Below, piece by piece: positions 31,747 to 36,789 of a stretch of DNA of 64,000 bases. Within the stretch, counting starts at the first letter, position 1. Each line of letters begins with the position of its first letter. Under the pieces are notes generated by a model, which had not been told where the DNA came from, did not search any database, and saw nothing but the letters and a program-made list of their open reading frames with translations. This DNA is from Escherichia coli (GTDB lineage Bacteria > Pseudomonadota > Gammaproteobacteria > Enterobacterales > Enterobacteriaceae). The position numbers and the translations under genes are program-made. The DNA lies in assembly GCF_030013205.1 (NCBI RefSeq), contig NZ_CP122648.1, one strand, 5' to 3'.

Positions 31747-31774
31747 TTCTCCCGATTTCCTCAATTGCAATGAA

Positions 31775-31801
31775 CCCGATGACCTGCGCATCGGGTTTTT
31801 T
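31775..31801 (+). terminator. rho-independent terminator after cheW
   Basis: hairpin cccgatg-acctgcg-catcggg followed by ttttttt. Confidence 0.65.
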
Positions 31802-31802
31802 A

Positions 31803-32510
31803 TTGTGCACAGAAAACCCCCAGCTAGGCTGGGGGTTCCGGAAAGCTTTCAGCTTTGAGCCAGTTATTAAAACCCCTTTTGATTTGTTAAAACACCTTGC
31901 GGTCTGGCAACTGCAAGTGTCAAACAAGAAATCAAAAGGGGGTCCCAATGGGGAACGAAAAGAGCTTAGCGCACACCCGATGGAACTGTAAATATCACAT
32001 AGTTTTTGCGCCAAAATACCGAAGACAAGTGTTCTACAGAGAGAAGCGTAGAGCAATAGGCAGTATTTTGAGAAAGCTGTGTGAGTGGAAAAGCGTACGG
32101 ATTCTTGAAGCTGAATGCTGTGCAGATCATATCCATATGCTTGTGGAGATCCCGCCCAAAATGAGCGTATCCGGCTTTATGGGATATCTGAAAGGGAAAA
32201 GCAGTCTGATGCTTTACGAGCAGTTTGGTGATTTGAAATTCAAATACAGGAACAGAGAGTTCTGGTGCAGAGGGTACTACGTCGATACGGTGGGTAAGAA
32301 CACGGCGAAGATACAGGATTACATAAAGCACCAGCTTGAAGAGGATAAAATGGGAGAGCAGTTATCGATTCCCTATCCGGGCAGCCCGTTTACGGGCCGT
32401 AAGTAACGAAGTTGGATGCAAATGTCAGATCGTGTGCGCCTGTTAGGGCGCGGCTGGTAAGAGAGCCTTATAGGCGCATTTGAAAAACCTCCGGCTATGC
32501 CGGAGGATAT
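31803..32510 (+). mobile_element. IS200-like insertion sequence (IS200/IS605 family), about 0.7 kb, boundaries approximate
   Basis: Single tnpA gene flanked by subterminal hairpins (cccccagc-tag-gctggggg at 31817-31835; cctccggc-tat-gccggagg at 32488-32506); extra DNA between the cheW terminator and the tar promoter; no terminal inverted repeats or target duplication seen, as expected for this family. Confidence 0.65.
31948..32406 (+). CDS. tnpA: IS200-type Y1 (HuH) transposase TnpA, 152 aa
   Basis: MGNEKSLAHTRWNCKYHIVFAPKYRRQVFY...CCADHIHMLVEIPPKMSVSGFMGYLKGKSS...RNREFWCRGYYVDTVGKN: HuH motif (HIH) and catalytic Tyr region typical of IS200 TnpA; ORF-track start at 31897 trimmed. Confidence 0.92.
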   Translation: MGNEKSLAHTRWNCKYHIVFAPKYRRQVFYREKRRAIGSILRKLCEWKSVRILEAECCADHIHMLVEIPPKMSVSGFMGYLKGKSSLMLYEQFGDLKFKYRNREFWCRGYYVDTVGKNTAKIQDYIKHQLEEDKMGEQLSIPYPGSPFTGRK

Positions 32511-32543
32511 TTATTTCAGTTTCGCGGCGGGTGGCATCAGCAA

Positions 32544-32570
32544 TAAAGTTTCCCCCTTCCTTGCCGATAA
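32544..32570 (+). promoter_or_regulatory. sigma28 class 3 promoter of tar-tap-cheRBYZ
   Basis: Perfect TAAA-N15-GCCGATAA (TAAA 32544-32547; GCCGATAA 32563-32570), about 30 nt upstream of tar ATG and downstream of the IS200-like element. Confidence 0.75.
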
Positions 32571-32601
32571 CGAGATCAACTTGTTTTCAGGAAGGTGCCT
32601 T

Positions 32602-34263
32602 ATGATTAACCGTATCCGCGTAGTCACGCTGTTGGTAATGGTGCTGGGGGTATTCGCACTGTTACAGCTTATTTCCGGCAGTCTGTTTTTTTCTTCCCTT
32701 CACCATAGCCAGAAGAGCTTTGTGGTTTCCAATCAATTACGGGAACAGCAGGGCGAGCTGACGTCAACCTGGGATTTAATGCTGCAAACGCGCATTAACC
32801 TGAGTCGTTCAGCGGTGCGGATGATGATGGATTCCTCCAATCAACAAAGTAACGCCAAAGTTGAATTGCTCGATAGCGCCAGGAAAACATTGGCCCAGGC
32901 CGCGACGCATTATAAAAAATTCAAAAGCATGGCACCGTTACCTGAAATGGTCGCTACCAGTCGTAATATTGATGAAAAATATAAAAACTATCACACAGCG
33001 TTAACTGAACTGATTGATTATCTTGATTATGGCAATACTGGAGCTTATTTCGCTCAGCCAACCCAGGGAATGCAAAATGCAATGGGCGAAGCGTTTGCTC
33101 AGTACGCCCTCAGCAGTGAAAAACTGTATCGCGATATCGTCACTGACAACGCAGATGATTACCGATTTGCCCAGTGGCAACTGGCGGTTATCGCGCTGGT
33201 GGTGGTATTGATTCTGCTGGTGGCGTGGTACGGCATTCGCCGTATGTTGCTTACACCGCTGGCAAAAATTATTGCTCACATTCGCGAAATCGCCAGTGGT
33301 AACCTGGCGAATACCCTGACCATTGACGGGCGCAGTGAAATGGGCGACCTGGCGCAGAGCGTTTCACATATGCAACGCTCTTTGACTGACACCGTCACTC
33401 ATGTGCGTGAAGGTTCAGATGCCATCTATGCCGGTACCCGTGAAATTGCGGCGGGCAACACCGATCTTTCCTCCCGTACTGAACAGCAGGCATCTGCGCT
33501 GGAAGAAACTGCCGCCAGCATGGAGCAGCTCACCGCGACAGTGAAGCAAAACGCCGATAACGCCCGCCAGGCCTCGCAACTGGCGCAAAGTGCCTCCGAT
33601 ACTGCCCAGCACGGCGGAAAAGTAGTGGATGGTGTAGTGAAAACGATGCATGAGATCGCCGATAGTTCGAAGAAAATTGCCGACATTATCAGCGTTATCG
33701 ATGGTATTGCCTTCCAGACTAATATCCTCGCGTTGAATGCCGCTGTTGAAGCCGCGCGTGCGGGTGAACAGGGCCGTGGTTTTGCCGTGGTGGCGGGCGA
33801 AGTGCGTAATCTTGCCAGTCGCAGCGCCCAGGCGGCAAAAGAGATCAAAGCCCTCATTGAAGACTCCGTCTCGCGCGTTGATACCGGTTCGGTGCTGGTC
33901 GAAAGCGCCGGGGAAACAATGAACAATATCGTCAATGCTGTCACTCGCGTGACTGACATTATGGGCGAGATTGCATCGGCATCGGATGAACAGAGCCGTG
34001 GCATCGATCAAGTCGCATTGGCGGTTTCGGAAATGGATCGCGTCACGCAACAGAACGCATCGCTGGTGCAGGAATCAGCTGCCGCCGCAGCTGCGCTGGA
34101 AGAACAGGCCAGTCGTTTAACGCAAGCGGTTTCCGCGTTTCGTCTGGCAGCCAGCCCACTCACCAATAAACCGCAAACACCATCCCGTCCTGCCAGTGAG
34201 CAACCACCGGCACAGCCACGACTGCGAATTACTGAACAAGATCCAAACTGGGAAACATTTTGA
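32602..34263 (+). CDS. tar: methyl-accepting chemotaxis protein II Tar (aspartate/maltose receptor), 553 aa
   Basis: [60 protein letters not shown]...; HAMP and conserved MCP signalling domain; ORF-track upstream extension trimmed. Confidence 0.95.
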
Positions 34264-34308
34264 CGAGTTTTTACTAACGCGGTCATTGCCGCCTGATGGG
34301 GAGCGTTG

Positions 34309-35910
34309 ATGTTTAATCGTATTCGAATTTCGACCACGCTGTTTTTAATTTTGATTCTCTGCGGGATCTTGCAGATTGGCAGTAACGGCATGTCTTTTTG
34401 GGCATTTCGCGACGATTTGCAACGACTGAATCAGGTCGAGCAGAGCAATCAGCAACGTGCGGCATTAGCGCAAACTCGGGCGGTAATGTTACAGGCCAGT
34501 ACCGCGCTGAACAAAGCGGGCACTCTGACGGCGCTTAGCTATCCGGCGGATGACATTAAAACGTTGATGACGACGGCGCGCGCCAGTCTGACGCAATCCA
34601 CCACGCTGTTTAAAAGTTTTATGGCGATGACTGCGGGCAATGAGCACGTCAGGGCGTTGCAAAAAGAGACGGAGAAAAGTTTTGCCCGCTGGCACAACGA
34701 TCTCGAACATCAGGCGACCTGGCTTGAAAGTAATCAACTTTCGGATTTCCTCACTGCGCCGGTGCAGGAATCACAGAATGCGTTTGACGTTAACTTTGAG
34801 GCCTGGCAGCAGGAGATCAACCATGTGCTGGAAGCTGCCAGTGCGCAAAGCCAGCGTAACTATCAGATTTCGGCGCTGGTGTTTATCAGCATGATTATTG
34901 TTGCGGCGATCTACATCAGCAGTGCGCTGTGGTGGACGCGCAAGATGATTGTTCAACCACTGGCCATTATCGGTAGCCATTTTGACAGCATTGCTGCGGG
35001 TAATCTGGCGCGTCCGATTGCGGTATATGGTCGCAATGAGATCACCGCCATTTTTGCCAGTCTGAAGACCATGCAGCAGGCTTTGCGTGGGACGGTAAGT
35101 GATGTGCGTAAGGGAAGCCAGGAGATGCACATTGGTATCGCGGAGATTGTCGCAGGCAATAACGATCTCTCAAGTCGTACCGAACAGCAGGCGGCATCGC
35201 TGGCACAAACGGCCGCCAGTATGGAGCAATTAACCGCCACGGTAGGGCAAAACGCCGATAACGCGCGCCAGGCGTCGGAACTGGCAAAAAATGCCGCGAC
35301 AACGGCGCAGGCGGGCGGTGTTCAGGTCAGTACCATGACTCACACCATGCAGGAGATCGCCACCAGCTCGCAAAAAATTGGCGACATTATCAGCGTTATC
35401 GACGGCATTGCTTTCCAGACCAATATTCTGGCCCTGAATGCGGCAGTGGAAGCGGCTCGCGCCGGAGAGCAGGGGCGTGGTTTTGCGGTAGTGGCAGGTG
35501 AAGTGCGCAATCTTGCCAGCCGTAGCGCGCAGGCAGCAAAAGAGATCAAAGGGCTGATCGAAGAGTCAGTCAATCGTGTCCAGCAGGGGGCGAAACTGGT
35601 GAATAACGCCGCCGCGACCATGACTGATATTGTCAGTTCGGTGACCCGCGTGAACGACATTATGGGAGAAATTGCTTCGGCCTCGGAAGAACAACGGCGG
35701 GGGATTGAGCAGGTTGCACAGGCTGTCAGCCAGATGGATCAGGTGACTCAGCAGAACGCCTCCCTGGTAGAAGAAGCGGCGACGGCAACGGAACAACTGG
35801 CGAACCAGGCTGACCATCTTTCGTCGCGTGTGGCGGTATTTACCCTTGAAGAACATGAAGTAGCACGACATGAGTCGGCGCAATTACAAATTGCGCCAGT
35901 GGTATCCTGA
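34309..35910 (+). CDS. tap: methyl-accepting chemotaxis protein IV Tap (dipeptide receptor), 533 aa
   Basis: [56 protein letters not shown]... with MCP signalling domain. Confidence 0.94.
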
Positions 35911-35928
35911 AGTGATTGAGAAGGCGCT

Positions 35929-36789
35929 ATGACTTCATCTCTGCCCTGTGGGCAAACGTCTTTATTGTTACAGATGACCGAGCGCCTGGCGCTTTCCGAC
36001 GCGCATTTTCGGCGGATAAGTCAATTGATCTATCAACGAGCCGGGATCGTTCTGGCTGACCATAAACGCGACATGGTTTACAACCGACTGGTTCGTCGTT
36101 TGCGTTCGCTGGGGCTGACGGATTTCGGCCATTACTTGAACTTGCTTGAATCTAATCAGCACAGCGGTGAGTGGCAGGCGTTTATCAATTCGCTGACCAC
36201 GAATCTGACGGCTTTTTTCCGTGAGGCGCATCATTTTCCTCTGCTCGCGGATCACGCCCGGCGTCGTTCTGGCGAGTATCGCGTATGGAGCGCGGCGGCT
36301 TCGACCGGCGAAGAGCCGTACAGCATTGCGATGACGCTGGCTGACACATTGGGCACCGTGCCCGGACGCTGGAAAGTGTTTGCCAGTGATATCGACTCCG
36401 AAGTGCTGGAAAAAGCCAGAAGCGGTATTTATCGCCATGAAGAGTTGAAAAACCTGACGCCGCAGCAACTGCAACGGTATTTCATGCGAGGGACGGGACC
36501 GCATGAAGGGCTGGTACGCGTGCGTCAGGAGCTGGCGAACTATGTTGATTTTGCCCCGCTGAATTTACTGGCGAAACAGTACACCGTGCCGGGGCCGTTT
36601 GATGCGATCTTCTGTCGTAACGTCATGATCTACTTCGATCAAACTACCCAGCAGGAGATTTTGCGCCGCTTTGTTCCGCTCCTTAAACCCGACGGATTGC
36701 TGTTTGCGGGTCACTCTGAAAACTTTAGCCACCTTGAGCGCCGCTTCACGCTGCGTGGTCAGACGGTGTATGCGCTAAGTAAGGATTAA
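35929..36789 (+). CDS. cheR: chemotaxis protein methyltransferase CheR, 286 aa
   Basis: [63 protein letters not shown]... Confidence 0.95.

Follow-up and report, generated by a model that had tools for sequence, protein, structure and literature searches.

Natural Tar-Tap hybrid chemoreceptors in Escherichia coli and the weak direct repeat that very probably gives rise to them

That the homologous parts of the neighbouring chemoreceptor genes tar and tap of Escherichia coli can recombine into hybrids is already known from laboratory genetics. In 1987, Slocum, Halden and Parkinson reportedly described laboratory tar-tap fusions formed by recombination between the tar/tap homologies. These fusions, said to be spontaneous deletions selected in K-12, resemble the genes considered here in the two partners, their orientation, the use of the homologous C-terminal regions and the product, where a Tar N-terminus is followed by a Tap C-terminus and the intervening DNA is deleted. 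They differ in that the present cases are found in wild isolates, with four mapped crossovers and one class that is widespread. Another close parallel is given by the molecules reportedly engineered by Weerasuriya, Schneider and Manson in 1998, Tar-Tap (Tarp) and Tap-Tar (Tapr). Like the natural hybrids, Tarp combines the sensing domain of Tar with a cytoplasmic domain from Tap, devoid of NWETF. However, the joints of Tarp and Tapr are said to be in the linker after TM2, whereas the natural joints are located about 90-150 residues downstream, thereby keeping the HAMP domain and the first methylation helix of Tar.

More generally, homeologous recombination is exemplified by rhs- or rrn-mediated rearrangements and by E. 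coli x Salmonella crosses, which are limited by mismatch repair. As in these systems, direct repeats at the tar-tap locus are associated with deletions, exchange takes place within perfectly identical islands, and events are infrequent, as is the case at 15-25% divergence. In contrast with rrn or rhs copies, the tar/tap repeats measure just about 0.2-0.5 kb and have diverged much further, and their product is an in-frame, functional-looking chimera instead of a simple loss.

Another natural route to the loss of Tap function has been described at this locus. According to the accounts in PMC3559539 and PMC12623472 of the two studies cited there, tap is lost in phylogroup B2/uropathogenic E. coli (Lane et al., 2006; Borziak et al., 2013). 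In the coordinates of the window, that is, the whole stretch of 64 kb analysed here, the B2-type deletion covers 34432-35805 (1374 bp). It lies wholly within tap, leaves tar intact and has a 4-nt CAGG microhomology. Like the hybrids, it removes Tap function in nature; unlike them, it makes no use of the tar/tap repeat. Being internal to tap, with its 4-nt microhomology, it was rejected as a product of this repeat. About 1,100 genomes cover less than 80% of a tar-tap query, and B2-type loss of tap explains most of them. Reports of tar-tap fusions in natural isolates, or of a crossover map, were not found in the literature searched, the full text of the key papers (Borziak 2013, Lane 2006) lying outside that search. 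Natural and recurring hybrids with mapped crossovers would be a modest addition to this picture, and involve no new kind of element or mechanism.

In the region 32400-36000, the window is 100% identical by megablast to ETEC4079 (NZ_CP122643.1), where the RefSeq annotation gives the gene order cheW, IS200C transposase, tar, tap, cheR. The genes and their homologous parts are as follows.

32602-34263, + strand: tar, methyl-accepting chemotaxis protein II, 553 aa (ORF and translation, RefSeq annotation of NZ_CP122643.1).
34309-35910, + strand: tap, methyl-accepting chemotaxis protein IV, 533 aa (ORF and translation, RefSeq annotation of NZ_CP122643.1).
33652-33850, + strand: repeat copy in tar, where the MCP signalling core is most conserved, 82.9% identical to the tap copy.
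35353-35551, + strand: tap copy of the repeat, offset by 1701 bp from the tar copy.
33643-33942 (partner 35344-35643), + strand: homology block D1, 75% over 300 nt at a spacing of 1701, from an independent repeat search.
33433-33617 (partner 35134-35318), + strand: homology block D2, 74% over 185 nt at a spacing of 1701, from the same independent search.

The mechanical ORF of tar begins at 32497, that is, 35 codons upstream of the annotated start. Both proteins have the domain organization of E. coli MCP-II and MCP-IV. In Tar, Pfam profiles identify TarH (1-169), HAMP (212-262) and MCPsignal (325-482, E 1e-62); in Tap, the same domains are found at 1-169, 209-260 and 323-480 (E 4e-56 for MCPsignal). 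The order cheW-tar-tap-cheR and the presence of NWETF on Tar alone complete the identification, Tar ending in ...DPNWETF and Tap in ...IAPVVS. At full length the two proteins are 47% identical. The repeated segment, corresponding to about residues 351-416 of Tar, is spanned by the matches of both proteins to MCPsignal (PF00015). The MCP signalling core forms the hairpin tip that touches CheA and CheW, and its strong conservation is textbook knowledge.

The first-pass annotation had described the two segments as near-identical in sequence and similar at the DNA level, and had proposed a pairwise nucleotide alignment as a check. This alignment is gapless, with 165 of 199 nucleotides identical, in a direct repeat of which the copies, said to be about 1.7 kb apart, are offset by exactly 1701 bp. 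The copies have the same orientation on one replicon and both begin at codon phase 0, in frame. The DNA similarity is thereby confirmed and is far above chance. "Near-identical" is appropriate for the protein, with 62-63 of 66 residues conserved (about 95%) and 97-100% Tar/Tap identity in the stretch around the segment, but not for the DNA, at 83%. Similarly, identical runs of about 20 nt had been announced; a single one exists in the segment, where the longest exact run has 21 nt and is followed by one of 16 nt and two of 11 nt. In the whole window, the only two copies of the 21-mer cgacattatcagcgttatcga lie at 33681 and 35382. Across the whole tar/tap homology, the longest runs of identity are 21, then 18, then 16 nt.

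Recombinant products of this repeat are found in nature. In a megablast search of 5,426 complete E. coli genomes, the first hybrid was observed in ET474, where the tar-tap region is reduced from 3491 to 1790 bp. Between cheW and cheR, this genome has a single gene, annotated "tar", of 1608 bp and 535 aa. This is the size predicted for an in-register Tar-Tap fusion, resulting from an exact deletion of 1701 bp. A whole-hybrid megablast is unfit for counting such genes, because separate tar and tap matches are joined in normal genomes as well, with 5,380 genomes reaching at least 80% coverage. Hybrids were thus counted with a chimera of sequences outside the homology, tar 33000-33400 joined to tap/cheR 35700-36100. 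This tar 5′/tap 3′ junction was retrieved from three of the 5,426 complete genomes (ET474, PEC389 and ETEC4088), or about 0.06%, and in each of them the cheW-cheR interval contains one 1608-bp gene annotated "tar". ET474 and PEC389 are identical across 4.6 kb. With a chimeric query for the reciprocal tap-tar junction, the product expected of a tandem duplication, none of the 5,426 complete genomes was retrieved. The earlier proposal that the repeat is a substrate for recombination, yielding tar-tap hybrids or a deletion, is therefore supported by these natural fusions, to which many draft assemblies can be added. An identity too low or too fragmented for recombination had been put forward as what would speak against it; hybrids exist even though the DNA is only 83% identical and fragmented, with no run above 21 nt, and it is this limited identity that would make the events rare.

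Crossovers were mapped from the informative sites that switch from tar-type to tap-type. Four junction classes were distinguished, all of them deletions of 1701 bp exactly in register.

33681-33701 (partner 35382-35402), + strand: class A crossover, in a 21-nt exact island; ET474, PEC389 and many draft assemblies.
33546-33563 (partner 35247-35264), + strand: class B crossover, in an 18-nt exact island, the second-longest run; ETEC4088 and others.
33506-33518, + strand: class C crossover, at 33511-33518 in contig L009 and at 33506-33509 in contig L010.
33481-33491 (partner 35182-35192), + strand: class D crossover, in an 11-nt identity island; contig L008.

In ET474, the sites switch cleanly between 33680 and 33702, within the 21-nt run, and the two contigs of class C differ at the single site 33510. 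Recombination had been predicted at the flagged segment. This holds for the commonest class, A, which crosses within the very 21-nt run quoted at the time; the sites of classes B, C and D are upstream, in block D2, which the earlier reading had missed and which contains three of the four natural crossover sites. Each crossover interval is confined to a short stretch of exact identity, 4-21 nt long, and the crossovers favour the long identity islands (summed run lengths 58, P ~0.004 versus random positions in the homology).

Outside the complete genomes, the exact class A protein (ET474-type) is encoded on 71 contigs and the exact class B protein (ETEC4088-type) on 28. A protein search gave more 535-aa hybrids, and the contigs encoding them, Logan contigs of 22-35 kb, yielded classes C and D. 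Within the index of the public assembly collection, class A occurs in 140 blocks, on contigs of which some exceed 1 Mb, and its context is always cheA-cheW-hybrid-cheR-cheB. Because class A is essentially one haplotype, with 0-7 SNPs in 4.4 kb, its many occurrences are best counted as one event that spread and not as many events. For class B, the 18-nt junction is flanked by Tar and Tap alleles in three or more different combinations, which suggests that this junction is recurrent, later allelic exchange being an alternative explanation. The wild isolates bearing hybrids come from pig, frog and human sources.

The origin of the similarity itself was considered with a null model, where the codons of both real proteins were redrawn independently according to local codon usage over the whole-codon segment 33649-33846. 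The DNA identity expected under this model is 74.2 ± 2.4%, as compared with 82.3% observed (P ~0.001). The longest run has a mean of 12.7 nt under the same redraw versus 21 nt observed, and runs of at least 21 nt have P ~0.03. Most of the tar/tap DNA similarity is thus forced by the protein, and a modest excess at silent sites is left over. In the columns of the segment, DNA identity is 82.8% for tar-tap, 80.8% for tar-tsr, 79.3% for tap-tsr and 77.8% for tar-trg. Over the whole cytoplasmic homology, tar-tsr (76.6%, with a longest run of 28 nt) exceeds tar-tap (70.5%), and, where the two proteins of a pair have the same residue, the codon is also the same in a fraction of 0.56 (tar-tap) or 0.57 (tar-tsr) of cases. 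Since unlinked paralogues are about as similar as tar and tap, the tandem position adds nothing to the similarity. As judged from these sequence comparisons, the similarity would correspond to passive conservation of a paralogous coding core, under purifying selection on the MCP signalling core, and it has no function of its own as DNA.

The identity above that expected from the proteins and local codon usage might also be attributed to ongoing gene conversion between the tandem copies, a concerted evolution that would keep the cores alike, and the tar base is indeed present at some polymorphic sites of tap in other strains. Such paralogue-matching sites are, however, expected by chance at two-fold degenerate positions. 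Moreover, in the comparison with tsr and trg, the tandem pair is not more alike at silent sites than unlinked paralogues, tar being about as close to tsr as to tap in the segment and closer overall. Identical codons are used at just 34 of the 62 identical residues of the segment, and no identical tract is longer than 21 nt. Gene conversion was rejected as the cause of the similarity because the unlinked tsr and trg are comparably similar, and we consider it very improbable. Still harder to believe is that the hybrids would result from assembly collapse of two similar genes, the repeat being too diverged and fragmented ever to recombine. It is true that the class A junction coincides with a shared 21-mer, where assemblers working at k=21 can jump. 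A Tar-Trg "hybrid" also illustrates the risk, as it is confined to low-coverage metagenome SPAdes contigs, where its parts join within a run of 22 shared nucleotides, and as none of the 5,426 complete genomes contains it; these contigs were set aside as a possible assembly artefact. However, the Tar-Tap fusion is present on three finished circular chromosomes, and class A recurs throughout the public collection, in part on contigs larger than 1 Mb. Classes C and D are carried by Logan contigs, whose assembly with k=31 precludes chimeras across runs of 21 nt or less. In addition, the same kind of fusion was reportedly obtained genetically in 1987. The finished chromosomes and the k=31 contigs make it unlikely that the hybrids are artefacts.

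Overall, it is very probable that the protein-constrained paralogous cores of tar and tap act incidentally as a weak homeologous direct repeat, which rarely deletes 1701 bp. In such a model, shared ancestry, protein constraint and codon bias would have left two in-frame homology blocks 1701 bp apart, with 74-83% DNA identity and islands of 11-21 identical bases. As a side effect, these blocks would serve as a weak direct repeat, able to pair in register on rare occasions, and the exchange would be resolved in one of the longer identity islands. Exactly 1701 bp would be lost, from the 3′ part of tar through the spacer into the 5′ part of tap. The single gene remaining would combine the sensor, HAMP domain and first methylation helix of Tar with the hairpin, second methylation helix and tail of Tap. 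Whereas the genomes show the repeat and its cause, as well as the products with their junctions, for the enzymology we infer either RecA-dependent homeologous exchange or replication slippage. RecA/RecBCD recombination in E. coli is said, following Shen and Huang in 1986, to have a minimal efficient processing segment of about 23-27 bp of perfect identity, and the longest tar/tap run, 21 nt, is below this size. At a divergence of 17-26%, strong opposition from mismatch repair is also expected. Classical homologous recombination is thus not the sole candidate, and perhaps not the best one. Short identity and mismatch-repair rejection agree with the rarity of the hybrids (3/5,426).

Consequently, RecA-independent short-homology events, such as replication slippage, template switching or single-strand annealing, may be envisaged at islands of 8-21 nt, in place of an exchange over the whole 200-500-bp homeologous block. 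We regard this possibility as rather unlikely, although several observations go in its direction. Every crossover interval is an exact island of 4-21 nt, the longest being below the size reportedly needed by RecA. Out-of-register tar-tap fusions occur as singletons at apparent microhomologies (P0017, 771 aa; P0018, 688 aa; P0028, 680 aa), and, together with the B2-type tap deletion and its mere four nucleotides, they indicate that illegitimate deletion is active at the tar-tap locus. On the other hand, the hybrids that persist are all exactly in register, and the preference of the crossovers for the longest islands fits equally well, or better, with flanking homeology guiding the pairing. The efficiency of slippage is also reported to drop steeply with the distance between repeats, here 1.7 kb, and Slocum and colleagues reportedly ascribed their fusions to recombination between homologies. 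The persistence of in-register products might also be due, in part, to selection of intact receptors and not to a preference of the mechanism. At the level of the junctions, RecA-mediated homeologous pairing and RecA-independent slippage or annealing would both fit the data.

Whatever the enzymology of the exchange, the composition of the products can be described. All three Pfam domains, TarH, HAMP and MCPsignal, are retained in the hybrids, which end in ...IAPVVS, without NWETF. Depending on the class, the switch from Tar to Tap occurs between about residues 294 and 367 of Tar. From the position of the junctions, the first methylation helix would be at least partly of Tar origin, and the second methylation helix and the tail would come from Tap. 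The hairpin tip would derive from Tap in classes B-D. In class A it is assignable to neither parent, because the junction is inside the nearly invariant core. As for the phenotype, we infer that Tap-mediated dipeptide and pyrimidine taxis would be lost in strains bearing a hybrid. Judging from published work, aspartate and maltose sensing should be kept, dipeptide taxis should disappear and adaptation should resemble that of a low-abundance receptor. According to the work of Slocum and colleagues in 1987 and of Weerasuriya and colleagues in 1998, Tar-Tap molecules reportedly retain the ligand specificity of Tar and detect less sensitively. They are also said to be poor at clockwise signalling and to need help from NWETF-bearing receptors for adaptation. 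The likeness to the engineered Tarp predicts aspartate sensing, poor clockwise signalling and poor unaided adaptation.

It may be asked whether the natural Tar-Tap hybrids are recurrent, lineage-stable and possibly adaptive variants rather than accidents. We consider this improbable, though some hints can be mentioned. At least four crossover sites are known in E. coli and the 18-nt site is reused on several allele backgrounds; class A has reached 140 or more blocks of the public collection, with pig, frog and human sources. Apart from these, a Tar-N/Tap-C receptor of the same 535-aa design is apparently fixed in an enterobacterial lineage, and a different tar::tap-tail fusion is apparently fixed in E. 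fergusonii. If the adaptive reading were true, the homeologous core would act as a joint in evolution, by which a two-receptor locus is repeatedly turned into one aspartate/maltose sensor having an adaptation tail of the low-abundance type.

At the scale of the strain, one deletion would remove Tap dipeptide/pyrimidine taxis and change that half of the aspartate receptor which serves adaptation and signalling. Repertoires of chemoreceptors established from genomes are affected as well, since the hybrids carry a plain "tar" annotation. The hybrids also illustrate, cleanly and on a small scale, how a homeologous exchange is resolved in the longest islands of identity. In a wider perspective, when neighbouring paralogues share a strongly conserved protein core, this core provides them with an inherent way of swapping domains and losing genes.

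The common loss of tap has no connection to the tar/tap repeat. The tar-tap query was covered over less than 80% of its length in about 1,100 of 5,425 genomes, and all four of the listed records of this kind (4/4) have one form, an internal deletion of 1374 bp in tap. Relative to contig L002 (strain Ecol_276), the deletion corresponds to window 34432-35805; it has a microhomology of 4 nt (CAGG) and is accompanied by a second lesion, the loss of 1 bp at 34395. Tar is left intact and tap is reduced to a pseudogene of roughly 150 bp. Most of the remaining genomes with such coverage are assumed to have the same form. The deletion agrees with what has been published on B2/UPEC strains, which have lost Tap.

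Receptors that appear to combine parts of Tar and Tap are also encoded outside E. coli, by the following genes:

L011/L012:6001-7608 and L007:130-1737, gene of a 535-aa receptor (proteins P0135, P0084)
L015:3001-4566, E. fergusonii 'Tar' gene (proteins P0072, P0073, P0162)

The first belongs to an enterobacterium whose cheB is about 82% identical in DNA to that of E. coli, and its cluster comprises 14 members, only from metagenome assemblies. The protein resembles Tar as far as about residue 360, and Tap from about residue 420 to its end (...AVPVVS); the gene lies between a fimbrial operon on its 5′ side and cheRBYZ-flhBA directly 3′. The receptor has the appearance of a Tar-Tap fusion that has become fixed in its lineage, with the joint within the invariant core. 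In E. fergusonii, where the neighbouring che genes show only about 80% DNA identity to E. coli, the 3′ region of tar is followed by the last five tap codons, and the protein (519-521 aa, ending ...AFRLTAPVVS) therefore lacks the NWETF tail. Here cheR starts 19 nt 3′ of the gene, and a fimbrial usher/SCPU operon is found upstream in place of cheA-cheW.

Singleton variants at the locus were observed in E. coli/Shigella: P0017 (771 aa), P0018 (688 aa), P0028 (680 aa), P0027, P0029 (578 aa), and P0030 (579 aa). Read from the proteins, some are in-frame but out-of-register tar-tap fusions, in which, for example, Tar ...QVALAV is followed by Tap AVYGRNE..., or Tar ...RNLAS by Tap LKTMQQ.... Others are tandem duplications internal to Tar: P0029 repeats a 25-aa part of the hairpin core, and P0030 the TM2 region.

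In GCA_907172595.1, which carries the class A hybrid (a 1608-bp tar-tap fusion between cheW and cheR), cheR is divided between one ORF of 210 aa and another of 89 aa (L019:4127-4986), which indicates a frameshift or indel directly 3′ of the hybrid. In the window strain, an IS200C-family element separates cheW from tar:

roughly window 31770-32509, IS200C-family insertion, whole
window 31948-32406, tnpA of the element

The cheW-tar spacer is 855 nt long, versus 144 nt in other strains, and most other genomes begin to match from window 32510. A sigma-28-type tar promoter motif (TAAAGTTT ... GCCGATAA, ~32544-32570) is kept 3′ of the insertion. It is the insertion, too, that gives the mechanical tar ORF (start 32497) a spurious N-terminal extension of 35 codons.

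Finally, a cluster of 15 members joins Tar to Trg:

L013:6001-7611 and L014:895-2505, Tar-Trg hybrid genes, 536 aa (proteins P0051, P0149)

These genes are preceded by flhDC-motAB-cheAW and followed by the trg neighbours ydcI-ydcJ-mdoD, and the junction falls within a 22-nt stretch (tar coordinates 33506-33527) that is the longest run of identity between tar and trg. They were seen only in low-coverage metagenome contigs, with none in the 5,426 complete genomes searched, which argues that they are at least as likely to be k=21 assembly chimeras as real genes. If real, the Tar-Trg hybrid would imply an inversion of roughly 0.5 Mb.
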